Part shown: in pieces, positions 1,207-16,019 of the stretch
Layout of the letters: every line of letters begins with the position of its first letter
Numbering within the stretch: position 1 is the first letter of the stretch
Assembly (NCBI GenBank): GCA_903889795.1
Contig: CAISYW010000202.1
Coordinates: 1-35,623 of the forward strand
Source: an uncultured Chlamydiae bacterium
GTDB taxonomy: Bacteria > Chlamydiota > Chlamydiia > Chlamydiales > SM23-39
Length of the DNA stretch: 35,623 nt
Reading direction: 5' to 3'
The notes under the pieces: model-generated
Told to the model about the DNA's origin: nothing
Databases searched by the model: none
Seen by the model: the letters and a program-made list of their open reading frames with translations, nothing else
Program-made: the position numbers and the translations under genes

Positions 1207-4200
1207 CTATTGATGCCGGTTATTAATTTCGCGCCATTTCCGAATGACCTCTGCCGCTAGTGGAGCGGCTTCCTTTCCGCCATCTCCGTAGCGAAGGTAA
1301 ACGACGACGATGAGTTCGGGTTTTTCCCATCGCTCTTTGTGCGATTTAATGGATTCGGCGGGGGGAAACGCGATCGCGCCAAACCAGATGTGCTTGTAAA
1401 TATAAGACGAAGAGGAGGGGTTGCAGTCGGGATGGCAGGAAATTTCAGCGGTACTGGTTTTTCCGATCATCTGATGCTGCAGAGCAAGAAAATCGCGAAG
1501 CTGGTTGGGATGTCCGTTGAGACCTTTGATGATACTGGGTCGTGCGCTGCCTTTCGGCCCCCAGATGACCCGGTCCATTCCCTCGCATAGCATATGGCGG
1601 ATGGAAGGAGCCAGGTTGCATTGATGTTCTGTTGGAAAAATTTTCTTTTTGATCAGTGTGGGAGTGCAAAGCCGTCCGCCGTTGGCCACTGCGGCAAGCA
1701 TTCTTGCGGCTTGTAGTGGCGTCGTTACAAGGGTGTGTTGTCCAATCGCAAAAGAGTAGAGGCCGGTACGGTTTGTATGAAGGTCTGTGGGGAGTCGTCC
1801 TTTGATTTCTCCCGGTAAATCAATCCCGGTACGCTCGCCTAAACCAAAATCGGCTGCTGTTTGTGTCAAATCGTCAGGATCTGAGAGGAAATCTCCTGCC
1901 AGAATGGCGAAATAGGGGTTGCTCGATTGTTCAAGCGCTCCAATAAGATCGACCTTTCCAATATTGGGCATATGGCTTCGGGGCAGTCTCCCTCCCTTGT
2001 AATGTCGATAGAATGGTTTATGATCGAGCGATGTTGCGACAACATCAAAGCCGGCATCATCAAATAAAACGAGAGGCGAGGAAGCAAAGCTGTCTTGATT
2101 GAGAGCGGCGGCGGCGGTGACGAGTTTAAATAAAGAGCCCATAGGGGCCGCGCTTTGATAGGCATGGCTGCGGCTAAATCCAAAGCCGCCAATCGGATAA
2201 AAAGCTGCGGCGAGATCTCGTTCGGTCTGCTCCCCCTTTTTGCCTCTCAAGTGACGATAGGATCCCCATAGAGGTCTTTCGAGTTCGCGAAACGAACGCA
2301 TGGTTTTGAGCCATTGTATAAGATCAGCTTCTTTCACATTGACGCTAGACTCTCGGAGCAGAGACCAGTCGCTCATTTGCTGGAGGGAGATATTCAGATA
2401 TTGCCGCGATTGTTCAGGTAAAATCGCCGTTTTTGGGTTTAATAGCGAAGCGAGAAGAGGAAAGCGGATTTTTTGCCAAAGCTCTTCAAATAGATCTCGT
2501 TCTTTTTGATCGAGATAATCGATATAGGGCCTTGCGTAGGTCTTTTTTTCTTTTTCCTCGCGTCGTATTTGTTGAAGAAATTCCTTTTGATTCAGGGTGC
2601 GCCAAGCGCGAAATTCCGTTTGATGGAAGATCTTTTGACATTGCAAGCGCACTTCTTGTTCCGCTCGTTGGAGCGATTGCGTAAGCGATCGATAGGTGGA
2701 AAGTTTGATGGAACCAACTCGTTCGACGAGCTCATCGGTGAAGGCGGGGCTATAGACGACGATTCGACTCATGTCGAGAGCAAACAGCTTGTCTTTGTTA
2801 TGAGGAACCTCCTTGAGAAGAGATTCGAGCCGCCGCCAAGGGGGCATGGCATCGCGGGCATTATTTTGCAGAGCTTCGAGGGCAGCATTTTTGTTTGCCT
2901 CTGTGATGTTTTGCATGCATAGGCTGCCATCGGGAAAGAGCAGATCGATCAACAGAGATGGGTCAGGGTTATTCGCATAGTAGAGCAGCGCTTCAAAATC
3001 TTCTTGCATCTGAATCGCGGTTTGAATGTTGTCGATTCGAGTCCATAGAGTAAAAAGGGGGCTGTCGGCGGGAAGAGTCTGTTGCAGATAGGTTTCCCAA
3101 ATCAGAGGTTTTTCTTCATCTTGTTTTAGGCCTTCTCGAAAGAAACAATCCTTGCCATCCCAGAGGTTGGCTATGTAGCGATCGCTTTCCAGCCAGCGAT
3201 GGATTCGATGCATTTTTTGTTCGCGGTTTGAAGTTGTGATAAAATCGTTTGGATCAAATCGAGGTATTCCGGCTAAAGCGATCACTTCTCCGTTATTGGG
3301 ATCGAGCGCGACGATGGCTCCCCCCTTGATCAGGGGTTGTTTTAAAAATTTTCGTCCTTTGGTTTGAGGATCGAGACCCGCGCTGCATCGATCTCGTGTT
3401 TTTTCATTTTGAATCAGGAGGGATTCGCAAAATTGCTGCAGTTCCGCAGAAAGAGACAGGGCGATGGTTCGTCCGGCTGTGGGCTCTTTGCCTCCCGGTA
3501 ATTCGCGAAGACAGGTCCCCTTCCGGTCAACTTCAAATATTTTTTTTCCATAAAGGCCGCGCAATTCTTGCTCGTATTGTTTTTCGATCCCGGTCTTCCC
3601 AACCAAGTCGTTCAACGTGTAAGCTTTTTCTTTTAATTCTCGGAAACGGTTTAAAAGCGCACTTTTTTCTCCGTCTTCAGCAATCATCTGCTGGAGAAGG
3701 TCGATTTCACCAGCGATATCGAGGTATTCTTTTTGGCTAATGGCTCCCAGGTGCCCGATCACGGATGCCGCCGTTTTGCCATGAGGGTAAGTGCGCTCTA
3801 AAGAGATCGCCGCATGCAACCCCAGCCATTCTCGCTCGAGTGCTCGCAGGCGATAGTACTTCTGTTCGGAGATGTTGGACTTGATGATGAATGGAACGTG
3901 AGGAAAAAGCGATGCCTTTGCGTGAATGAGATCTTCGATTCGTTCCGGGTCCATCTCGAGCTCTTGGCTCAATATGCGAGCCAGATTGCGGATATAATCT
4001 CTTCTCGTAAAAACGCGTACACGTTGTCCTGCTTCATCCGTAGACCAGGTGGTGGAGGGAATTTGCGCGAACTGTCCGTAGTAAATCGATGCATTATAAC
4101 AAATGCGGTTTGTGGCTAGCGGGATGCCAAATCGATCAACGATAGCGCCTCGTTCGGCTTGCTGAATAATTGTGCGGCGCTGTGGTTTTTGGGCCTCTTG

Positions 4201-4314
4201 AAGCTTTTCCTCGCGCTGAACGACCGTCAGATGCCAGATTCGAAAGACAATGAGCAAAAAAGCGCCCAGAAAGATTTGAAGGAGCCGATTTGATTTTTGC
4301 AGCGGAGAGGCCAT
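1207..4314 (-). CDS. pbp2: Penicillin-binding protein 2-type peptidoglycan transpeptidase (oversized chlamydial form)
   Basis: 1035-aa ORF with an N-terminal membrane anchor (LLQIFLGAFLLIVFRIW). C-terminal transpeptidase motifs are S-L-F-K (SxxK), S-S-N (SxN) and K-T-S-T (a variant of KTG). Several hundred extra residues lie between the N-terminal domain and the transpeptidase, as in chlamydial PBP2. Confidence 0.8.
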   Translation of the reverse strand: MASPLQKSNRLLQIFLGAFLLIVFRIWHLTVVQREEKLQEAQKPQRRTIIQQAERGAIVDRFGIPLATNRICYNASIYYGQFAQIPSTTWSTDEAGQRVRVFTRRDYIRNLARILSQELEMDPERIEDLIHAKASLFPHVPFIIKSNISEQKYYRLRALEREWLGLHAAISLERTYPHGKTAASVIGHLGAISQKEYLDIAGEIDLLQQMIAEDGEKSALLNRFRELKEKAYTLNDLVGKTGIEKQYEQELRGLYGKKIFEVDRKGTCLRELPGGKEPTAGRTIALSLSAELQQFCESLLIQNEKTRDRCSAGLDPQTKGRKFLKQPLIKGGAIVALDPNNGEVIALAGIPRFDPNDFITTSNREQKMHRIHRWLESDRYIANLWDGKDCFFREGLKQDEEKPLIWETYLQQTLPADSPLFTLWTRIDNIQTAIQMQEDFEALLYYANNPDPSLLIDLLFPDGSLCMQNITEANKNAALEALQNNARDAMPPWRRLESLLKEVPHNKDKLFALDMSRIVVYSPAFTDELVERVGSIKLSTYRSLTQSLQRAEQEVRLQCQKIFHQTEFRAWRTLNQKEFLQQIRREEKEKKTYARPYIDYLDQKERDLFEELWQKIRFPLLASLLNPKTAILPEQSRQYLNISLQQMSDWSLLRESSVNVKEADLIQWLKTMRSFRELERPLWGSYRHLRGKKGEQTERDLAAAFYPIGGFGFSRSHAYQSAAPMGSLFKLVTAAAALNQDSFASSPLVLFDDAGFDVVATSLDHKPFYRHYKGGRLPRSHMPNIGKVDLIGALEQSSNPYFAILAGDFLSDPDDLTQTAADFGLGERTGIDLPGEIKGRLPTDLHTNRTGLYSFAIGQHTLVTTPLQAARMLAAVANGGRLCTPTLIKKKIFPTEHQCNLAPSIRHMLCEGMDRVIWGPKGSARPSIIKGLNGHPNQLRDFLALQHQMIGKTSTAEISCHPDCNPSSSSYIYKHIWFGAIAFPPAESIKSHKERWEKPELIVVVYLRYGDGGKEAAPLAAEVIRKWREINNRHQ

Positions 4315-4649: not shown

Positions 4650-5480
4650 ATGAGGAGCATGGGTTTGGCTACAGCAGAGCAATACGAAGTAGCAGTAACA
4701 ATTAAGGGTTTGATCGAGTCTGGGGCCCATTTTGGCCATCAAACACGTCGCTGGAATCCAAAAATGCGTCGCTTTATTTTCGAGGAGCGCAACGGGATTT
4801 ACATCATCGATTTGGCTAAGACCTTGCAGCAAATTCGTGCAGCAGTGTCCGTGGTTCGTGAAACGGTCAGCAAGCGAAAGTCGATTTTGTTTGTTGGAAC
4901 GAAAAAACAGGCCAAGATTGTCATTAAAGATTGCGCGGAAGAGTGCGGTGAGTTTTATGTATGCGAGCGTTGGTTGGGCGGCACTTTGACCAATCTAACG
5001 ACGATTCGCCAATCTGTTAAAACGATGGAACGAATTGAAAAACGACTTGCGGCCGGTGGAGAAGGCTTGAAGAAGAAAGAGATTTCTCTTCAGACTAAAG
5101 AGCTTGTCAAACTCAACCGTAACTTGTCAGGAATTCGTGCCATGCGCAAGCCGCCCGGGCTCTTGATTGTCGTCGATCCGGGTCGTGAGCATATCGCTGT
5201 CGCGGAAGCCAATAAATTGGGCATTCCCGTGATGGCTCTGGTTGACACGAATTGCGATCCCGATCCGATTGATTATGTGATTGCATGCAATGATGACGCT
5301 CTTAAGAGCATCAAGATCATATTGAACGCATTGATGCAGGGGATTATCGACATTAAAAACGACAGGGATCTTCCTAGTTCGAAAGGCGATGAAGAGAATG
5401 TATCGTCCGATGAGGATGAAGATGATGATGAGGAAAGTGAAGAAGGAGAAGAGTCTCCTGATGACAAGGGTGGGAAATGA
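4650..5480 (+). CDS. rpsB: 30S ribosomal protein S2
   Basis: The HFGHQTRRWNPKM signature and overall S2 blocks are present. The stop overlaps the tsf start (ATGA). Carries an acidic C-terminal tail. Confidence 0.95.
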   Translation: MRSMGLATAEQYEVAVTIKGLIESGAHFGHQTRRWNPKMRRFIFEERNGIYIIDLAKTLQQIRAAVSVVRETVSKRKSILFVGTKKQAKIVIKDCAEECGEFYVCERWLGGTLTNLTTIRQSVKTMERIEKRLAAGGEGLKKKEISLQTKELVKLNRNLSGIRAMRKPPGLLIVVDPGREHIAVAEANKLGIPVMALVDTNCDPDPIDYVIACNDDALKSIKIILNALMQGIIDIKNDRDLPSSKGDEENVSSDEDEDDDEESEEGEESPDDKGGK

Positions 5481-6325
5481 GGGAAATCACATCTGACATG
5501 ATTAAGGAGCTTCGGGAACGAAGCGGCGTAGGAATGGGAAAGTGCAAAGAAGCGCTTGTCCTCGCTGAAGGCGACATGGAAAAAGCGATCGATATTTTGC
5601 GCAAGTCTGGTTTGGCTGCGGCCGTTAAAAAAGAGGGTCGCGAGACAAAAGAGGGGATGATTCAGACGGCGGATGATCGGTCTACTCTCGTGATTGCTGA
5701 AGCGAATGCGGAGACGGACTTCGTTGCGAAAAACGATCGGTTTAAGCATTTTCTTTACGACTGTGTCAAGCAGGCGCTTGAAACAAAGCCTAAATCTCTG
5801 TCGGATTTTCTTCTTCAGCCCTACTTCAAAGATAAATCAATCACTATCGATCAGTACCGAAATTTGGTTATTCAAGCTCTTGGTGAAAATATACAGCTAA
5901 AACGGCTGGAGATTGTTCACAAGCACCCCAATTGCTCGTATGGAATTTATTCCCACATGGGCGGTAAGTTAGTTGTTGTCGTCGAAATGGAAGGTGCTTC
6001 CGATCAAGAGGGGATAGCTAAAGAAATTGCGATGCATGTGGCTGCGGAAAATCCTGATTATTTGAAGCCAGAAGAGATTCCGGCGCATGTATTAGCTCGT
6101 GAAGAAGAGATTGCGCGCTCGCAAGTCCAAGACAAACCGGCTAATATTGTCGATAAGATCGTCGCCGGCAAGTTAAAAGCGTATACGGATCAGGTTTGTC
6201 TCGTTCACCAAAAATATGTGAAAGATAATAGCGTGACAATCCAGCAATTTCTCGATGTCTGTTCGAAGAAGTTAGAAAAAAAGTTCTCGATTCGCTGTTT
6301 CTGGCGTTGGAAAGTCGGTCAATAG
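5477..6325 (+). CDS. tsf: Elongation factor Ts
   Basis: N-terminal UBA-like block ITSDMIKELRERSGVGMGKCKEAL and EF-Ts core blocks (AETDFVAKN, HVAAENP). Translationally coupled to rpsB. Confidence 0.95.
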   Translation: MREITSDMIKELRERSGVGMGKCKEALVLAEGDMEKAIDILRKSGLAAAVKKEGRETKEGMIQTADDRSTLVIAEANAETDFVAKNDRFKHFLYDCVKQALETKPKSLSDFLLQPYFKDKSITIDQYRNLVIQALGENIQLKRLEIVHKHPNCSYGIYSHMGGKLVVVVEMEGASDQEGIAKEIAMHVAAENPDYLKPEEIPAHVLAREEEIARSQVQDKPANIVDKIVAGKLKAYTDQVCLVHQKYVKDNSVTIQQFLDVCSKKLEKKFSIRCFWRWKVGQ

Positions 6326-6382
6326 TGTATCCGTGTAAATTCCTCGATGTTTATCATCGGGGAATTTTCTTCAATAAATTTA

Positions 6383-6418
6383 ATACCATGAACCTTTGGC
6401 TTCATGGTATGATTTTCT
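6383..6418 (+). terminator. Rho-independent terminator candidate downstream of tsf
   Basis: Perfect 10-bp stem ATACCATGAA/TTCATGGTAT with an 8-nt loop, followed by GATTTTCT, about 57 nt after the tsf stop. Confidence 0.5.
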
Positions 6419-6521
6419 CAAGTCCATTTTCGCTGGGTTATGAATATATTTCTGATTCTTTGACTTTGTTGAGGGATTTACGGCGCGACGGACTTATTTT
6501 CAATGAACGAGTGGGTGTATT

Positions 6522-7076
6522 ATGAGCAATATCGATGCGCAAATTAAAGCCGCGATGCAGGCTGTTTTAGATCACCTCAAAGGTGAGTTAAGGAGTCTCA
6601 GGACGGGACGGGCCAATTCAGCAATGTTGGACAAAGTGCAGGTTGAGGTTTATGGCAATCATATGCCGATAAAAAATCTCGCCAGTGTGACTGTTCCTGA
6701 GTCGCGTCAAATTTTAATCTCTCCTTTTGATGCTAGTTCGATTCATGCGATTGCTAAGGCGATTGACGCTACAAATATCGGTCTGCACGCTGTTGTAGAC
6801 GGCAAGGTTGTGCGTGTACACGTCCCCCCGATGGATGAGACCATCCGCAAGCAAATTGCCAAGCAGTGCAAGGAATTGGGTGAAAAATCAAAGATCGCAA
6901 TGCGTGATGTTCGCCGTAAGTATAACGAATTGGTGCGTAAGCAAAAGGCTGACGGCGTAATTCCGGAAGATCTCATGAAAAAATATGAAAAGACTGTTCA
7001 GGATTTGACAGAACGTTTCTGTAAGGATATCGATGCGGTTTGTGCAGATAAAGAAAAAGAGATCATGACTGTTTGA
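6522..7076 (+). CDS. frr: Ribosome recycling factor
   Basis: 184 aa, with typical RRF blocks (LRTGRANSAMLD, VEVYG, IRKQIAK, RDVRRKYNE). Confidence 0.95.
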   Translation: MSNIDAQIKAAMQAVLDHLKGELRSLRTGRANSAMLDKVQVEVYGNHMPIKNLASVTVPESRQILISPFDASSIHAIAKAIDATNIGLHAVVDGKVVRVHVPPMDETIRKQIAKQCKELGEKSKIAMRDVRRKYNELVRKQKADGVIPEDLMKKYEKTVQDLTERFCKDIDAVCADKEKEIMTV

Positions 7077-7619: not shown

Positions 7620-8390
7620 ATGATTTATGATGTAACAATTAAGTCTCACGAGAAAGATTCATACAAATTAGACTTAGTCTTAGATTCTCTAGTCCTATTG
7701 AATCCTCAACCAAATTATATATATATAATTTCACCTAGTGGTTTTCGACCTAATCATAGCTTTTATAGAAAAAAAATTATTTGTTTAAAGGATGATGAAG
7801 TAACGCCTTTTATTGATCGCGCAAGAATTTCAGTTATGCCAAATTGGGTCTGGACTAATTTAGTGTCATTAACGCAAAATTTCACTGAAAATGATTTTTA
7901 TCTCGACGTTCAATCGGATGTGTTTTTTTTGAAACAGATTAATTTATTCGATGAACTAGGGCGGCCGAAACTATTTAAAACTACATCTAACGAAGCTAAC
8001 AACAATAATGGGGAGAGCTCATATTTCAGATTTAGCAAGGAGATGTTTAGTGTAAATAAGATTACTGATGGTGATTCGTATATCATCGATTACACGATGT
8101 ATAATAAAACGATTGCCAAAAAAATTTATAGTAAATACCGTTCAGTTGAAGATATGCTGGAAGCTGCATATAAAGTTATCGATGAAAGTCGATTTCCAGC
8201 TGATGGAGAAATTTTCGGTAACTTCGTAGAAAAGTTTTTTCCTGATTTTTATTGTATTACTAGAGAAATAAATCATTGTTTTTCGGGTGTACGAAGTGGT
8301 GAGGGAAGAAGGTCTACTGTACTTGCATATATAAACAAGTGTAAGCAATCTTCGTTTATGAATTCCTGCGCCTTTCACGATTGGAAATAA
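7620..8390 (+). CDS. Hypothetical protein, possible GT-A-like nucleotide-sugar transferase
   Basis: 256-aa AT-rich ORF starting at ATG 7620. The block NWVWTNLVSLTQNF-x6-YLDVQSDVFF weakly resembles the region around the DxD motif of GT-A-type transferases. Composition becomes GC-richer in the last ~35 codons. Confidence 0.55.
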   Translation: MIYDVTIKSHEKDSYKLDLVLDSLVLLNPQPNYIYIISPSGFRPNHSFYRKKIICLKDDEVTPFIDRARISVMPNWVWTNLVSLTQNFTENDFYLDVQSDVFFLKQINLFDELGRPKLFKTTSNEANNNNGESSYFRFSKEMFSVNKITDGDSYIIDYTMYNKTIAKKIYSKYRSVEDMLEAAYKVIDESRFPADGEIFGNFVEKFFPDFYCITREINHCFSGVRSGEGRRSTVLAYINKCKQSSFMNSCAFHDWK

Positions 8391-8391
8391 T

Positions 8392-8576
8392 ATGACGGTT
8401 TCTGAAGCCAAACGAATGAGAGTTCTGGAATCTTAAAATGCCGCTCTGCTGGAGGAAAGAGGTATGTTGAGGAGTGGCGAGAAGAATCCAATGAATATCG
8501 TCCGCACAGTTCGCTGGGAGGGAAAGAGCCTTGTGAAGTAGCCAGAAGCGAAGAAAAAAGAGCGAAAATATCCTGA
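8392..8576 (+). pseudogene. C-terminal remnant of a DDE (rve-type, IS3/IS481-like) transposase
   Basis: The frame ending at TGA 8574-8576 reads YVEEWREESNEYRPHSSLGGKEPCEVA. This is the W-x3-YN-x2-RPH-x2-LGG-x-P signature found at the C-terminus of integrase-core transposases. The upstream piece (MTVSEAKRMRVLES) is in a different frame. No catalytic or N-terminal part is present. Confidence 0.6.
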
Positions 8577-8860
8577 ACCTCTATTACTAATCCACTCGTC
8601 AATTAAGTGACAAAAGGCTTGCTGTGCCTTTGCCATATTGATCCTCCCTCGTCAGCCATAGTTCTGCTATGGCCTTCATCCTTCGGACCGCTGCACTTCA
8701 ATCTGGACAAGGCTGCGGATTCGCACGAGAAGGTCCAGTGGACCTTCGCAGTGGAGAGCAGGTGAACAAAGCGAACCGGCCCGAAGATTGTGGCAAGCCG
8801 ACTCAGTCCAAAACCGATTTCTAAAGCATGTTCGGTATAGAAAAGCTTACAATCGACTTT

Positions 8861-9736
8861 CTAACTTTTTTTGCTATCTGCCGCTTTAATAGATTTGATG
8901 ATGTTCTCAATTAAATTGTTTAAATTTTTGTCATTATAAAAAACGCAATTACATGGAATTTTTAGATTTTCTGCGTAACAGTCAGGTTTGTTATTTCCAA
9001 ATGCAATAATTACTTTTTCTTTGTCATTTAATATTTTTTTAGTTTGCATAAATGCAAATGGCCCTGTGTTTCTTGCTAAAATAAATTTGCATTTTTCAGC
9101 TAGCCAACTGATTTCATTTAAATCACAATCATTAGTCTTGATTATTTCAGATGTATTAACAATGTTTTTTGCTGTTACACGAGAATAAGAGGTTAAAATA
9201 ATTCTTATATTTGGAAATTCATTTGTTATTGCAGAAACGATCGGATCTAAATTATCTCCTAAGTTTGTTTGACCTGAATGAACAGGACCGTTAACAAAAA
9301 TTATAGAATTTAAGTAATCAACTGGATAATTTGTAGGAATATCGAAAAATTTATAGTCAATTTCAGGTATGTAATACTCAGGATCTTTTAAAATTAGTTT
9401 TTTTTTGGTTATGCTTTCAAGGAATTTATATATTAAGGAAAATAGCCGATGATATTCCGTAAGGTACATTCCTGATCTATTTGGAAGATTTGCAATCCAT
9501 GTATTAATGAAAATGTTATTATTATCAATGTGATGAGTTATTCTCGGCTGCAAAATTTTATCAAATTCGACTAATGGTAAGTATTTAGCTGGCAAATCTA
9601 ACAACAATTTTGGGCCGTGATGATGCATCAAGCTATAATTAAATTCAGGAATTTGATCAATTATATCTTTTATAAACCATTTAGATTGAAATTGATCGCC
9701 TTTGTGCCAGTTATTGAAAAAAGTTATATTATACAT
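8861..9736 (-). CDS. Hypothetical protein, possible GDP-sugar (fucosyltransferase-like) glycosyltransferase
   Basis: 291-aa Asn/Ile/Lys-rich ORF. Its ATG directly abuts the TAA of the upstream methyltransferase gene. Weak motif resemblance to GT11-type motifs (HKGDQFQ near the N-terminus; DLNEISWLAEKCKFILARNTGPFAF near the C-terminus). Confidence 0.6.
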   Translation of the reverse strand: MYNITFFNNWHKGDQFQSKWFIKDIIDQIPEFNYSLMHHHGPKLLLDLPAKYLPLVEFDKILQPRITHHIDNNNIFINTWIANLPNRSGMYLTEYHRLFSLIYKFLESITKKKLILKDPEYYIPEIDYKFFDIPTNYPVDYLNSIIFVNGPVHSGQTNLGDNLDPIVSAITNEFPNIRIILTSYSRVTAKNIVNTSEIIKTNDCDLNEISWLAEKCKFILARNTGPFAFMQTKKILNDKEKVIIAFGNNKPDCYAENLKIPCNCVFYNDKNLNNLIENIIKSIKAADSKKS

Positions 9737-10957
9737 TTAAATACTTATTATTTCAAAATTTGGACAGGGAACTATAAATTTTCCACCGTTGCGCAAATAT
9801 TCCTGTTCGCGCTCAATAAATTCATTAATAAAATGCCAGGGCAGAACTAATAAGTAATCCGGCTTTGCTTTGCGCATATCTTCTTCAGAATAGATGGGAA
9901 TATTTGTGCCAACAGTTTTTAAACCGTACTTATATGGACTTCTTTCAGCAATTCCTTCAATCAGAGTATGGTCAAGATTGAAATACTGCAATAACGTATT
10001 TCCTTTTGTTGATGCTCCATAACCCCAGATTTTTTTACCTTTTTGCTTTTCGTTATAAATAAAATCGTAGGTCTGTTTCTTTAATTTTTGAAGTTTTTCA
10101 TAAAAAGCAGCCCAAATCTCAGGGGTGTTATAATTATTGGTTTTTTCATATGCCAATATTGAATTAACCCTAAAACTACAAACGTCGCGGTTTGGCTGAG
10201 TGCTAAACTTTTTAAGATTTCCTGAGTCCTTCATCGCATATACTCTAAATGACCCGCCATTAATGTCGTTTAGTTGGCAATCTACGATTTTAAATTTGTT
10301 CTTTTCAAAAAGATTTTTTATTGATGTTAATGTATAGTAGTAAATGTGTTCGTGACAAATATTATCAAAAGCCATCTGATCAATCATCAGAGGTGAGTAA
10401 CTCATCTGAACAACCATTAACCCATCATTTTCCATGACGCTATAAACATCAGAAAGAAATTTTGAGGGATCTTCCAAGTCATAGAACATGGCAATAACAG
10501 TGACTATTTTTGCCTTCCGCGCTCCTTGTTCTGATTTTTTATATGCATCTGCAGAAAAATAATCTTGAATAATTAGATCTGCATGGCAACGTGATTCTTT
10601 GACATAACTATCCTCAACGGGATCGACTCCAATGCGAATACAATCCTTTGGCACAAAGCTAAGAAGAGTTCCGTCATTGCAGGCGATGTCGAGCCATACA
10701 TCCTTCCTTTCTAATTTGATCAAACTGCAAACTGAATTAACAATGCTTTTCAATTCAGTGCGCATTGTTTGATTAATTCCTGATCGATACCAGTACTTGC
10801 CATACATTGCATCTTTCGGGGCGGCTTTTTCAAGCCTCACTTCTGATGTTGCTTCATCAAACATCATTTTCATTTCGACTTTTCCGCATCGGGGAAATTC
10901 ATTAACATGAAGAAAATCGGAAACATATAGTTTTCCCAATGAAAAAAATTCTTTCAT
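9737..10957 (-). CDS. SAM-dependent NDP-hexose C-methyltransferase family protein (TylC3/NovU-like)
   Basis: SAM-binding block LDIACNDGTLL, YWYRSGINQTM, and C-terminal HEHIYYYT ... INGGSFRVYA blocks characteristic of this family. The N-terminal Cys4 zinc ribbon of the family appears to be lost. Confidence 0.7.
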   Translation of the reverse strand: MKEFFSLGKLYVSDFLHVNEFPRCGKVEMKMMFDEATSEVRLEKAAPKDAMYGKYWYRSGINQTMRTELKSIVNSVCSLIKLERKDVWLDIACNDGTLLSFVPKDCIRIGVDPVEDSYVKESRCHADLIIQDYFSADAYKKSEQGARKAKIVTVIAMFYDLEDPSKFLSDVYSVMENDGLMVVQMSYSPLMIDQMAFDNICHEHIYYYTLTSIKNLFEKNKFKIVDCQLNDINGGSFRVYAMKDSGNLKKFSTQPNRDVCSFRVNSILAYEKTNNYNTPEIWAAFYEKLQKLKKQTYDFIYNEKQKGKKIWGYGASTKGNTLLQYFNLDHTLIEGIAERSPYKYGLKTVGTNIPIYSEEDMRKAKPDYLLVLPWHFINEFIEREQEYLRNGGKFIVPCPNFEIISI

Positions 10958-11004
10958 ATTTTTCCTTTTATTATTTCTGATATTGTTTGTTGTGTATTAT
11001 TTAA

Positions 11005-11259
11005 CTAATTTTTTCCGTATAGTTTAGTTTTTCCTTGCTTGTATAGTTTTTGCGGTTGTTTTGTAATTATAATATTATTTATTAGTTCGTCAATTTCTTG
11101 AATGAGGTCATTCCTCTGTTGGTTACATATATTAGTTAGTCTGGTTGCTTGAGCTAACTGGGCGTCAGTGGCGGCAGGTTCTCTTTTAATGTCTTCAGCC
11201 ATCCAAATTCTTATATTTACCACAGTTAGTTTGTCGATAAGATTAGCTATTGTTTCCAT
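11005..11259 (-). CDS. Small hypothetical helical protein
   Basis: ATG at 11259 (the track ORF starts at TTG 11280). It overlaps the last 17 nt of gmd and has the same AT-rich composition, sitting inside a tightly packed operon. Motif L-x3-N-x3-W-x2-ED-x2-R (LTVVNIRIWMAEDIKR). Confidence 0.45.
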   Translation of the reverse strand: METIANLIDKLTVVNIRIWMAEDIKREPAATDAQLAQATRLTNICNQQRNDLIQEIDELINNIIITKQPQKLYKQGKTKLYGKN

Positions 11260-12277
11260 GGGTACTCTTCTTTTTTTCAAAATTACACATATCTATTATT
11301 AGTTCATCGAATGAAATTCTTGGTTTCCATCCAAGGACATGTTCAGCGCGTGAACAATTTGCTGATAAGAATCTCATTTCCAATGGCCTAAATAATTCCG
11401 ATGAAATTTTTATTATTACATTCCCCGTTTCTTTGTTTAAGCCCACTTCATTAATTTCTTCACCTTGCCACTCAAGATCAATTCCATATATTTTACAGCA
11501 TTTCTCAGCAAATTCTCTTACCGTGTGTTGAGCGCCTGTAGCGATTACGTAATCATCTGCACTATTTTGTTGGAGCATTAACCACATGGCCTCAACAAAG
11601 TCGATTGCATGCCCCCAGTCTCTTTTTGCATTTAAATTTCCTAGAACCAGTTCGCTCTCTTTATTTATAGAAATATTATATAAAGTGTTTGTTATCTTTT
11701 TTGTTACAAACTCGAGTCTGCGTCTCGGAGATTCGTGATTAAATAAAATTCCATTAACTGCATATATTCCATATTTTTCCCTATAGGTTCTTGTCATCCA
11801 ATATGCGTATACTTTTGCACAACCATAGGGGCTGAGAGGGTGAAAGGGGGTCGTTTCACTCTGAGGAATTTCTTGTGCATGACCAAACATTTCTGCTGAC
11901 CCGGCCTGATAAAATTTAATATCTTTCATTTTATTGAGAATTTTAATGGATTCTAGGATTCGTATAGGTCCAAATGCTAGGGTATTAGAGATCTCTTCGG
12001 GCTCTATAAAAGATACTTGAGCATCGCTTTCAGCGGCTAGGTTATAAATTTCCTGCGGATTTATATCGTGAATTAAATCAGTAATGTCAGTTGTTCTGTT
12101 TAAGTTGCCGCAATGAAGCTGAAAATTGTTATTGTTAATAATGTCTTGTAACCAAATTGTTTTTTGAGTATTTAGGCTTCTTATTAGTCCGTGAACTTCA
12201 TATCCTTTATTTAATAATAATTCAGCAAGGTAGGAACCATCCTGCCCTCCGACGCCAGTTATAAAAGCTCTTTTCAT
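11243..12277 (-). CDS. gmd: GDP-mannose 4,6-dehydratase
   Basis: ITGVGGQDGSYLAELLLNKGYEVHG, GSAEMFG, SPYGCAKVYAYW..YRE and ILFNHESPRR blocks are GMD hallmarks (Ser/Glu and Tyr-x3-Lys). Confidence 0.85.
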   Translation of the reverse strand: MKRAFITGVGGQDGSYLAELLLNKGYEVHGLIRSLNTQKTIWLQDIINNNNFQLHCGNLNRTTDITDLIHDINPQEIYNLAAESDAQVSFIEPEEISNTLAFGPIRILESIKILNKMKDIKFYQAGSAEMFGHAQEIPQSETTPFHPLSPYGCAKVYAYWMTRTYREKYGIYAVNGILFNHESPRRRLEFVTKKITNTLYNISINKESELVLGNLNAKRDWGHAIDFVEAMWLMLQQNSADDYVIATGAQHTVREFAEKCCKIYGIDLEWQGEEINEVGLNKETGNVIIKISSELFRPLEMRFLSANCSRAEHVLGWKPRISFDELIIDMCNFEKKKSTHGNNS

Positions 12278-12623: not shown

Positions 12624-13853
12624 CTAAGGCTTCATATCTCGAATGATGCGAGGAGGTCGATTGTCAACGAAGCACTCTTTGTCGACCATGATTTCTCGAA
12701 TCGTCGGATCAGAGGGAACTTCAAACATCAAGTCGCGAAGCATATTTTCAGCGATCATGCGCAAGGCCCGGGCGCCAGTGCCCGTTTGTCTGGCTTTTTC
12801 AGCCATGGCAATGAGAGCTGTTTCGGAAAACTCTAACTTGACGTTTTCTTCTTGAAAAAGCGCTTGATATTGTTTGATGATTGCATTTTTAGGTTTGGTA
12901 AGAATGTTGACCAAATCTTCAACGGTTAGTTCGTTACAATTGGCCAAACTGTTAAAGCGCCCAACAAATTCGGGAATCATCCCAAATTGGATCAAATCTT
13001 CAGGCTCGACTTTCGAAAGAAGGTAGTTGGTTTCCTCTGCATCGAAACGGCGCTTGGTGGCGGCGTCAAATCCAATGGTGCTCTTCCCTAAGCGTTTGGC
13101 AACAATTTTATCGAGGTGATTAAAGGCGCCTCCCACAATAAACAAAATGTTTTGCGTATTGACCCGGATATATTCCTGGTTGGGATGTTTGCGGCCGCCT
13201 TTGGGTGGAACATTTGCTACGGTTCCTTCTACAATCTTGAGGAGAGCTTGCTGAACGCCCTCTCCGGAGACATCTCGGGTGATTGATACGTTCGAAGTGG
13301 TCTTGCGTATTTTGTCGATTTCATCGACATAAATGATCCCTTGCTCGGCTTTGCCAACATCATAATCAGCCGCTTGCAAGAGACGCAAAATGATGTTTTC
13401 TACGTCTTCGCCGACATAACCGGCCTCGGTGAGCGTTGTCGCATCGGAAATCGCAAAGGGGACATCCAAAATCATCGCTAAGGTACGGGCGAGTAGCGTT
13501 TTTCCGGAACCGGTGGGACCCATTAGCATTACATTGGATTTACTATATTCGACGCTGTTCTGCCGGGATAGTGAGCGAATTCTCTTATAATGATTGTAGA
13601 CAGCGACAGAGATTGTTTTTTTCGCAAGATCCTGACCGATTACGTATTCATCGAGATGAGCTTTAATTTCTTTTGGTTTAAGAAGCTTAATCTCATAGGT
13701 TACGGGTTTTTTTTTGATGATGTCCGCGCAAAGCGTTACGCATTTGTCGCAGATATGGACGTTGGGTCCCGAAATGAGTTTCTCAACAAGATCTTCTGTC
13801 CGTCCGCAAAATGAACAGCTTGTCGGAGCTTCGTTCGATGGTTTTTTTCCCAT
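12624..13853 (-). CDS. clpX: ATP-dependent Clp protease ATP-binding subunit ClpX
   Basis: N-terminal C4 zinc finger (CSFCG...CDKC), Walker [12 protein letters not shown], Walker [10 protein letters not shown], pore loop GYVG, IGF docking loop, GARALR sensor. Confidence 0.95.
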
Positions 13854-13858
13854 AGACC

Positions 13859-14491
13859 CTAAACTGTAGTATTAATGACTTGGTTTTTAGTCAAGGGATC
13901 AGATCCCTTTTCCGGCGGTCGCGCGATATGATCGACCAACCCGTATTGAAGTGCGGCTTCAGGATCCATGTAAAAATCACGCTCTGAATCTTCAATCACT
14001 TTCTCAATACTTTGTCCTGTAAAGCGCGAAATCAGGGAGGAGGTGATTTTTTTCAAATTCAAAATTTCGCGTGCTTGCAATGCAATGTCTTCCGATGTGC
14101 CCATAATGCCGCCGTATGGCTGATGAAGCATGATGCGGCTATGAGGCAAAGCAAAGCGCTTGCCTTTAGATCCGGCAGCCAGAAGCATTGCAGCCATGGC
14201 AACGGCTTGGCCGATGCAATAGGTGTTAATGTCGCAACCCAAAAAAAGCATCGTGTCGACAATTGCAAGCCCCGACGTGATATGGCCGCCTGATGAGTTG
14301 ATGTAGAGATTAATGTCTTTTTTGGGATCTTCCATCTTTAAAAAAAGAAGCTGCGCTACGACGACGTTCGCGACGGAGTCGCTAATGTCGGTTCCAATAA
14401 AAATAATACGATCTTTTAGAAGGCGCGAATAGATATCCATAGAGCGTTCGCCACGCCCTGTATCTTCGATTACGTATGGAGTTAAAGACAT
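13859..14491 (-). CDS. clpP: ClpP-family protease subunit with the catalytic Ser replaced by Ala
   Basis: Collinear, gap-free match to E. coli ClpP through YINSPGG...GQAASMG...MIHQP...ERD. Here the blocks read YINSSGG...GQAVAMA...MLHQP...ERD, so His and Asp are present but the nucleophile position is Ala98 (GCC, 14198-14200). Confidence 0.9.
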
Positions 14492-14549
14492 GTAAAAACC
14501 TCCGGTCTATTAAACTGGGATCCAATTATTAACTTATACCCGACTTTGT

Positions 14550-15902
14550 CTATTTTTGACCTTCGATTTCATTAGCAGGGCTGTTTTCGTCAGGAGCCGG
14601 CGCGGGGGGCGTGCCGTTTTCAAGGATATAATTTTGCGCTTTGGCTAAAAGAATTTTCGACAAAGCGAGCGCAAAAACCTCTTTTGAGAGGTGCTCGGGA
14701 TCGACTGTTTGTCCAAATGCATTTGCAGAACGAGCGGCTTCTTGCTGCACTTCTTCGTGTGTTACGGTGATTTTAGCGTCGCGCACGATCTGCCGGGTCA
14801 GATAAAACAGACGAACCGCTTGCACCGATTCATTATAAATATTTTCCTCAACCTTTTTTTTCTCTGCTTGAGACATGCGATCATACGGCTCTTTAAATTT
14901 TGGATTCGTATGAAGTTGTTTCATTCGATGATTTTTTTCTGTCTCAATAAGCGATAGGGGAAGTTCAAACGTATAGCGGTCGATGAGAAATTCATTGACT
15001 TGATCATTTAGCTTCGTTTGTATTTTTTCTTCGATGTTGCGTGCAAGCGCTGAACGGACGGCCTCGCGCATCGCAGGAATGTCTTTTACTCCCATTTTAT
15101 GGGCGAAATCCTCCATTTCGGGAAGAGTGGGTTCCTCGACCTGGTGGAGGGTTAAACGTATTTTCTTTGGCTTGAACTCTGCTTTTTCTTGTTCATTGGC
15201 ATCTGCGTCGGGTTCGCTGACTCCCTCTAAAATGTCGCCCGATTTCGCTCCGATGACGAGTTGTTTCATCCAATCGGCCATTCGCTCTTTCATCACCTGA
15301 AAGCGAACATGATCGAATACTTTTTGCGGTTCATCTTCGATCGTATGTAAATCGATCATGATATAATCGCCTTCCTGTACGCCTCGGTCGGTAATGGGAC
15401 GCCACTGAGCAAAATAAAATCGGGATTGATGGATTGCTTCATCAATCTGTTTCTCACTCACTTCATCTCTCTTTACGAGTTTGGCCTGGAATTGCTTGGG
15501 ATCGACTGTCGGGACTTCCGGTTCCGTATCGAAAGAGAAGATTAACTCCGCACCCTCTTCGAGGGAATGTTTTTTGAGATCAAACGTCACGGGTGTGTGT
15601 GGCAGCAAGGCGACTCGTACCTGCATTTGGGCCGCGTTAAATGCCGCATCGGCAATTGATTTATGCCATTCGCTTTCGATCGCTGAACCATATTTTTTTA
15701 CGACCACCTCTTCCGGCGCATGCCCTTTGCGAAAACCGGGAAACGTGACCTCTTTGCCGATCTTTTTGATCGCTTCTTTACGTGCCGCCAAAACAAGAGC
15801 GGGGGATGCCTTGACTTCGAGTTCGATATGGCAGGCCGGCTTTCGATGAACGATGGCGGTGACGCTCGTTTGCTGTTCTTCGCGTGTTAGTTGTTCTGAC
15901 AT
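14550..15902 (-). CDS. tig: Trigger factor
   Basis: 450 aa, with an N-terminal ribosome-binding block FPGFRKGHAP and FKBP-like middle and C-terminal domains. Position upstream of clpP-clpX is conserved in many bacteria. Confidence 0.9.
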   Translation of the reverse strand: MSEQLTREEQQTSVTAIVHRKPACHIELEVKASPALVLAARKEAIKKIGKEVTFPGFRKGHAPEEVVVKKYGSAIESEWHKSIADAAFNAAQMQVRVALLPHTPVTFDLKKHSLEEGAELIFSFDTEPEVPTVDPKQFQAKLVKRDEVSEKQIDEAIHQSRFYFAQWRPITDRGVQEGDYIMIDLHTIEDEPQKVFDHVRFQVMKERMADWMKQLVIGAKSGDILEGVSEPDADANEQEKAEFKPKKIRLTLHQVEEPTLPEMEDFAHKMGVKDIPAMREAVRSALARNIEEKIQTKLNDQVNEFLIDRYTFELPLSLIETEKNHRMKQLHTNPKFKEPYDRMSQAEKKKVEENIYNESVQAVRLFYLTRQIVRDAKITVTHEEVQQEAARSANAFGQTVDPEHLSKEVFALALSKILLAKAQNYILENGTPPAPAPDENSPANEIEGQK

Positions 15903-15947: not shown

Positions 15948-16019
15948 AGCGGGTGATGAGGCTCGAACTCACGACCCTCACGTTGGCAACGTGATGCTCT
16001 ACCACTGAGCTACACCCGC
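15948..16019 (-). tRNA. tRNA-Gly (anticodon GCC)
   Basis: The reverse complement folds as acceptor GCGGGTG/CACCCGC, D arm GCTC-AGTGGTA-GAGC, anticodon stem TCACG/CGTGA with loop TTGCCAA, T arm GTGAG-TTCGAGC-CTCAT. Confidence 0.9.

Follow-up and report, generated by a model that had tools for sequence, protein, structure and literature searches.

The locus studied here raises the question of whether a ClpP protein encoded next to ClpX can lack the catalytic serine by nature and, if so, which function is left to it. The window, i.e. the whole stretch of 35,623 nucleotides that we analysed, comes from an uncultured Chlamydiae bacterium. In both Chlamydia and Mycobacterium, Clp proteases composed of two different rings serve as drug targets, and it is actively debated which of the rings does the cutting.

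Identity and neighbourhood of the clpP gene

The gene of interest is an ORF of the minus strand (13859-14491) that codes for a ClpP protein of 210 residues. All the genes, codons and motifs of the tig-clpP2-clpX region whose coordinates are given below are likewise on the minus strand. A Shine-Dalgarno sequence, GGAGG (14499-14503), is found 7 nt before the ATG. The ClpP protein matches the family profiles PF00574 (238 bits for a cut-off of 20.2; residues 13-191) and NCBIfam NF001368 (286.9 bits for a cut-off of 249), as well as 110 ClpP entries of the PDB. Its best solved relative is ClpP2 of Chlamydia trachomatis (6x60; E 7.9e-87), with which it aligns without gaps over residues 1-194. The identity with this protein, hereafter ctClpP2, is 66%, versus just 34% with C. 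trachomatis ClpP1 (ctClpP1). The window protein also has a full-length N-terminal axial loop that corresponds residue-for-residue to that of ctClpP2, whereas ClpP1 has no such loop. The closest 120 database homologues are all chlamydial ClpP2 proteins of uncultured environmental chlamydiae.

A preliminary description of this DNA, made from the letters alone, had proposed that the protein aligns without gaps to Escherichia coli ClpP and lacks the nucleophile. The gapless alignment holds, with residues 3-189 of the window protein facing residues 2-188 of the 1tyf chain. In this alignment as in that with 6x60, Ala98 faces the nucleophilic serine, whose counterpart in C. trachomatis is Ser98. The protein is thus a ClpP by its profile match, but its Ser-His-Asp triad is incomplete, with His123 and Asp172 kept and Ala98 in place of the serine. 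MEROPS (S14) would class such a protein as a non-peptidase homologue. Annotation pipelines label such serine-less ClpP2 proteins 'proteolytic subunit', although they would not be expected to be proteolytic alone.

The trigger factor gene tig (14550-15902; Pfam Trigger_N and Trigger_C) is located upstream in the tig-clpP2-clpX unit, and it is itself preceded by a tRNA-Gly(GCC) gene (15948-16019) predicted with ARAGORN and Rfam. On the other side, clpX (12624-13853) is found 5 nt downstream of clpP2. It codes for a full-length, canonical ClpX (Pfam zf-C4_ClpX and AAA_2) that matches E. coli ClpX (8e91) at 2e-145 and has the zinc finger, Walker A and B motifs, GYVG pore loop, RKH motif and IGF motif. 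The latter (residues 260-262; 13068-13076) forms the loop that docks into the hydrophobic pockets of ClpP, and its presence in the neighbouring ClpX had been correctly noted from the outset. The wider neighbourhood consists of rpsB-tsf-frr, a gene for a large penicillin-binding protein (PBP), tig-clpP-clpX, and then genes for an SNF2 helicase, MreB and PckA. The order tig-clpP2-clpX recurs in the related loci for which gene tables are available, and it is shared with C. trachomatis, including SNF2-mreB-pckA on the other side. We take these two groups of genes to be equivalent to CT707-CT705 and CT708-CT710 of C. trachomatis, respectively. Together, this neighbourhood and the 66% versus 34% identities identify the window gene as the chlamydial clpP2 (CT706) orthologue.

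Other parts of the window have features of their own. The block that separates clpX from the tRNA-Glu, tRNA-Lys and frr genes (7620-12277) codes for a GDP-mannose 4,6-dehydratase, a DUF4254 protein, a C-methyltransferase and two proteins without Pfam match (291 and 256 residues). As two serine-less relatives (L114 and L115) have other genes at this place, the block looks like a variable sugar-modification island. The rpsB, tsf and frr genes are adjacent (4650-7076), with a gap of ~200 nt between tsf and frr. The pyrH gene, which bacteria usually have between these two, is absent here. The PBP gene (1207-4314) codes for 1035 residues, with a PBP-dimer domain (residues 51-271) and a transpeptidase domain (residues 714-981) separated by ~440 residues without Pfam match.

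Comparison with ctClpP2 (6x60, 8dla) shows that the N-terminal loops, His123, Asp172, the Glu170/Arg171 pair and the IGF motif of the adjacent ClpX are shared. In contrast, the window protein has Ala98 where C. trachomatis has Ser98, which makes it a natural counterpart of the laboratory S98A variant. Its oxyanion loop reads NSSGG instead of NSPGG, and the residue two positions after the nucleophile (hereafter +2) is Ala instead of Gly. The two proteins also differ at residue 190 (codon at 13922-13924), which is Ala in the window protein and in 120/120 of the close ClpP2 homologues. In ctClpP2, Ile190 is a residue of the hydrophobic pocket, and the I190T substitution impairs the action of both ClpX and ADEP (PMC6773864). 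The chemistry of the docking pocket in the ClpP2 clade of the window may differ from that of C. trachomatis.

The alanine at the nucleophile position

The active-site motif of the window ClpP2 (14192-14212) reads G94-Q-A-V-A98-M-A100, as initially claimed, in place of the canonical G-x-A-A-S-M-G found by alignment to 6x60, 1tyf and 2zl0. Direct reading gave GCC for codon 98 (14198-14200; ggc on the plus strand), GTT for codon 97 and GCT for codon 100 (14192-14194). The reading of the codon and the gapless alignments to the solved ClpPs 6x60 and 1tyf agree in placing an alanine at the nucleophile position. The other two residues of the triad are present as described before, namely His123 (CAT; 14123-14125) and Asp172 (GAT; 13976-13978), the latter beside the Glu170/Arg171 oligomerisation sensor. 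The oxyanion-hole loop (14285-14299) reads N65-S-S67-G-G69, with Ser replacing the Pro of the canonical N-S-P-G-G.

A sequencing or assembly error, in which GCC is a miscalled base of a true TCC codon, would take a single base, the two states being one nucleotide apart. In a codon comparison, all 74 Ser-bearing relatives have a TCN codon at this position, and the nucleophile change thus amounts to a single T>G step. The preliminary description had argued that replacement of the following Gly by Ala made the change more than one base call. This argument does not stand, since Ala at +2 is the norm of the clade, being found in 79 of its 86 Ser-bearing members; it is therefore no evidence for a multi-base change. 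The S-M-A sequence is also carried by a solved ClpP, 6hwm ('aasmaa').

What speaks against an error is the recurrence of the alanine. Independent assemblies from many samples and different projects gave 19-20 contigs that encode the identical protein; the longest of these contigs is that of the window, and re-reading of four of them confirmed GCC at codon 98. The 90% cluster of the window protein comprises six distinct full-length alleles, all with V-A-M-A, and the protein belongs to a clade of 10 sequences that is purely Ala. More broadly, Ala98 is present in 34 of the closest 120 database homologues. It is also found in 5 of 41 genes (12%) in a scan of the metagenome collection, for which we used a DNA pattern with T or G permitted at the first base of codon 98. 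The Ala-bearing relatives use four codons, GCC, GCG, GCA and GCT. An error is thus practically inconceivable as the explanation. Ala98 is real and heritable, and the proposal that the protein is naturally serine-less was right.

Two of the related contigs have peculiarities. L004 (ERZ18627720 scaffold_22080, 1436-2074) is a short contig with the identical serine-less clpP2. The ClpX-like fragment beyond this gene, separated from it by a longer gap, is just 75% identical to the window ClpX and reads MGF instead of IGF; the scaffold may be chimeric or derive from a second strain. On L114 (ERZ25039519 contig_78700, 57.6 kb), the tig, clpX, SNF2 helicase and PBP genes are each split into several ORFs, and the serine-less clpP2 is intact. 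The split ORFs look like indel errors of a long-read assembly rather than biology.

Substitution patterns bear on whether the serine-less genes are maintained. Between serine-less lineages (the window, L088, L007, L031, L037 and L098), pN is 0.06-0.10 and pS is 0.72-0.87; as pS is saturated, these values place dN/dS below ~0.04. Two haplotypes of one serine-less allele differ at 4 nucleotides, and all 4 differences are synonymous. His123, Asp172, Glu170, Arg171, Gly68, Gly69 and Met99 are invariant in 34/34 serine-less proteins, and Asp172 is invariant in the 86/86 Ser-bearing homologues as well. The N-terminal 31 residues (14399-14491), which form the axial loops for ATPase contact and pore gating, are almost identical across all 120 homologues, Ser-bearing or serine-less. 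The mean column entropy is 0.31 for the serine-less sequences and 0.35 for the Ser-bearing ones. The IGF motif is present in the ClpX encoded beside clpP2 in 15 of the 16 loci classed as Ala by our script, the exception being L004, and this count includes two loci (L023 and L024) that are actually Ser-bearing once a one-residue offset is corrected. Taken together, these patterns of conservation indicate that serine-less clpP2 genes are under strong purifying selection.

An alternative is that the gene is decaying, ClpP2 having become superfluous and the loss of the serine being the first step towards a pseudogene. The relaxed constraint on the catalytic apparatus, in which Ser98, Pro67 and Gly100 are all variable, would fit this idea. 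However, decay is difficult to reconcile with an intact ORF that has its Shine-Dalgarno site and is closely followed by clpX, with the low pN at saturated pS, with an entropy that is no higher in the serine-less sequences, or with the invariance of the N-terminus and of the sensor residues. We regard it as extremely improbable.

Constraint on the active sites of ClpP2 and ClpP1

We determined how often the serine has been exchanged among the 120 homologues using a neighbour-joining tree from which site 98 was left out. Parsimony gave 13 Ser/Ala changes (bootstrap range 9-18), as compared with ~30 when the states were shuffled; as the tree is based on ~190 columns and is poorly resolved, the count of independent switches is approximate. 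The two states can be found in very similar proteins. The closest Ser/Ala pair (P0095 and P0113) differs at 7 of 192 residues, and the Ser and Ala forms P0017 and P0349 are within one 90% cluster.

In contrast with ClpP2, the serine is kept in 219/219 chlamydial ClpP1 sequences (Fisher p = 1.4e-17). The same holds, at 219/219 each, for the catalytic His, the oxyanion-loop Pro and the +2 Gly of ClpP1, whereas Pro67 is kept in 30 of 76 chlamydial ClpP2 loci of the genome collection (GTDB) and the +2 Gly in 30 of 79 environmental ClpP2 proteins. The fate of the oxyanion-loop Pro suggests that the active site of ClpP2 has been eroded beyond the serine. As judged from these residue counts, the relaxation of constraint is specific to the catalytic apparatus of ClpP2 and spares that of ClpP1. 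On evolutionary evidence alone, the serine would thus be dispensable in ClpP2 and indispensable in ClpP1, as in a two-ring core that is asymmetric. The residues that replace the oxyanion-loop Pro in most environmental ClpP2 proteins are Ala, Gly, Asn, Ser, Leu, Met and Val, with Ser67 in the window protein.

A further difference between the two forms of ClpP2 concerns position +2. A Ser at this position (A-M-S in the serine-less proteins) is present in 15 of 34 serine-less and 7 of 86 Ser-bearing homologues (Fisher p = 1.8e-5, a value that ignores shared ancestry); in the window protein, the residue is Ala. The homologues listed for the A-M-S motif are P0002-P0009, P0021, P0022, L007, L031, L131 and L137. 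This enrichment, together with the strict conservation of the His and Asp, could mean that a substitute nucleophile keeps ClpP2 active, either the Ser at +2 or a nearby Ser, Thr or Cys such as Ser67. However, the enrichment could be traced to two or three clades, and Ser67 is present in just 2 of 34 serine-less sequences. Judging by the helix geometry of ClpP structures, a side chain at +2 faces away from the His, which also counts against it. In addition, two engineered variants, ctClpP2 S98A and S99A of Helicobacter pylori ClpP (2zl3), are both regarded as inactive (PMC6773864). A substitute nucleophile is therefore very unlikely. For the window ClpP2 itself, a nucleophile relocated to +2 was rejected, its motif being A-M-A.

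Possible roles of ClpP2 without its serine

We consider it probable that ClpP2(A98) forms a dead ring that serves for docking, gating and allostery and is stacked on a catalytic ClpP1 ring. In this model, the serine-less ClpP2 would still fold and assemble, and its N-terminal loops and docking pockets would still be offered to ClpX and, by analogy, to ClpC. In the absence of Ser98, no acyl-enzyme intermediate could form, which would leave the ClpP2 ring devoid of peptidase sites. Cutting would be performed by the ClpP1 ring of the ClpP1P2 hetero-tetradecamer, with its perfect Ser-His-Asp site, and the adaptor role of ClpP2 would comprise docking of the ATPase, gating of the pore and allosteric activation. 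The strong purifying selection on the serine-less copies and the invariant active site of ClpP1 fit such a non-catalytic, ClpR-like subunit.

That chlamydial ClpP1 and ClpP2 work as a mixed complex, as stated in the preliminary description, is established for C. trachomatis. There, each protein is inactive alone, the active core is a ClpP1P2 hetero-tetradecamer, and ClpX docks on ClpP2 (PMC6773864). ClpC likewise docks via ClpP2 (PMC10128030). The ctClpP1P2(S98A) complex has ~40% of its peptidase activity left and still degrades GFP-ssrA with ClpX; nevertheless, ClpX-dependent degradation is more impaired in ClpXP1P2(S98A) than in ClpXP1(S92A)P2 (PMC6773864). In overexpression experiments in C. 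trachomatis, ClpP1 S92A does more harm than ClpP2 S98A (bioRxiv 10.1101/379487), and the developmental cycle is blocked when ClpP2 S98A is overexpressed for a prolonged time (PMC7468207). This block and the greater impairment of ClpXP1P2(S98A) imply that the ClpP2 site is not simply dispensable in C. trachomatis.

The environmental sequences provide a natural experiment, in which a sizeable group of uncultured chlamydiae has long had a ClpX-linked ClpP2 without nucleophile and ClpP1 never loses its own. They support a division of essential tasks, with ClpP2 as the ring for ATPase docking and gating and ClpP1 as the peptidase, and they are in tension with the developmental block reported for ClpP2 S98A. 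The dead-ring model leaves unexplained both the enrichment of Ser at +2 and the retention of the His and Asp. For a site left without chemistry, the strict conservation of His123 and Asp172 (34/34) is unexpected, unless the two serve structure or allostery.

Those same features would be accounted for if the switching between Ser and Ala were adaptive. Lineages would then tune the output of the ClpX/ClpC-coupled protease by turning off the sites of the docking ring, and possibly turning them on again by a GCN to TCN change, which takes one step. The target of such tuning would be the docking ring's seven active sites, in the sole protease coupled to ClpX and ClpC. Processivity, the length of the peptide products or the partial release of unfolded substrates could change as a result, and the retained His and Asp and the +2 Ser would denote a remodelled site rather than a dead one. 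We hold this scenario to be quite unlikely.

The comparison with ClpR, made at the outset for the protein, is valid in part. Like the ClpR proteins of cyanobacteria, plastids and the apicoplast, the window ClpP2 has the ClpP fold, belongs to the ClpP family, would lack catalytic competence and is presumed to form a mixed core with a catalytic ClpP. In contrast, it is outside the ClpR lineage, its closest homologues all being chlamydial ClpP2, and its gene is flanked by tig and clpX instead of forming a clpP3-clpR pair. In cyanobacterial ClpR, a ring partner of ClpP3, more of the triad is missing, whereas the serine-less ClpP2 proteins have lost only the Ser. In addition, Ser and Ala are polymorphic among the close relatives of the window protein, while the ClpR state is fixed in an old family. 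The window ClpP2 is probably a functional analogue of ClpR, in line with the purifying selection and the invariant ClpP1 site, and not a member of the ClpR family, given that it is the CT706 orthologue, adjoins clpX and has lost only the serine.

A further parallel is ClpP1P2 of Mycobacterium tuberculosis, which also has two rings, with the ATPases docking on ClpP2 only (PMC9067928). The M. tuberculosis ClpP2 S110A mutant is viable in culture and in mice, whereas the ClpP1 serine cannot be removed, and in the authors' proposal ClpP2 acts as the scaffold and ClpP1 as the protease (PMC9067928). The dead ClpP2 was engineered in that case and is natural and recurrent in the chlamydiae. The two systems also belong to different phyla, and that of the chlamydiae has no propeptides and has clpP1 and clpP2 at separate loci. 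Systems of this kind, in which one of two bacterial ClpP paralogues is inactive by nature and the core is asymmetric in function, are already known, and defective clpP alleles of natural origin have been noted in Nocardia, Streptomyces and Leptospira (PMC9067928). A literature search of incomplete coverage yielded no published report of a naturally serine-less chlamydial ClpP2.

The dead-ring model requires a ClpP1 partner. No second clpP gene was found within the 35.6-kb window and no clpP1 in the flanks of the long serine-less contigs. We searched for ClpP1 with two queries, a C. trachomatis ClpP1 sequence (99% identical to a database entry) and one environmental ClpP1; none of the contigs and clusters that we then compared came from a sample or an assembly with a serine-less clpP2. 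In the scan of the genome collection, the best match to the window ClpP2 is 90% identical. The sole ClpP1/ClpP2 pair that we could tentatively assign to one genome (P0301 with L068) comes from a Ser-bearing genome. We assume a partner ClpP1 for the window genome because ClpP1 is present across chlamydiae; we infer that this genome has a ClpP1 that forms a mixed complex with ClpP2, and that ClpP2 has no residual activity.

Another possibility is that the serine-less ClpP2 acts independently of ClpP1, as a dead homo-tetradecamer or heptamer that caps ClpX without degradation and modulates unfolding or traps substrates. ctClpP2 does crystallise as a homo-tetradecamer (PMC9823225), and inactive ClpXP traps unfolded GFP-ssrA (PMC6773864). 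The presence of clpP2 and clpX in one operon, as well as the outcome of our searches, which linked no ClpP1 to the window genome, would also be consistent with such a cap. However, ClpP1 is found throughout the sampled chlamydiae, and the invariance of its active site indicates that it is in constant use. Moreover, C. trachomatis ClpP1 is active only together with ClpP2, and ClpP2 shows no variation at the ring-ring sensor residues E170, R171 and D172. A role independent of ClpP1 is thus unlikely, and we favour the dead ring stacked on ClpP1.

In environmental chlamydiae, the order glyA-clpP1-dapF is conserved around clpP1, and an alanine-dehydrogenase-like gene often comes next (L085, L099, L100, L104-L106 and L116). 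In L116, four ORFs without Pfam match are located between glyA and clpP1.
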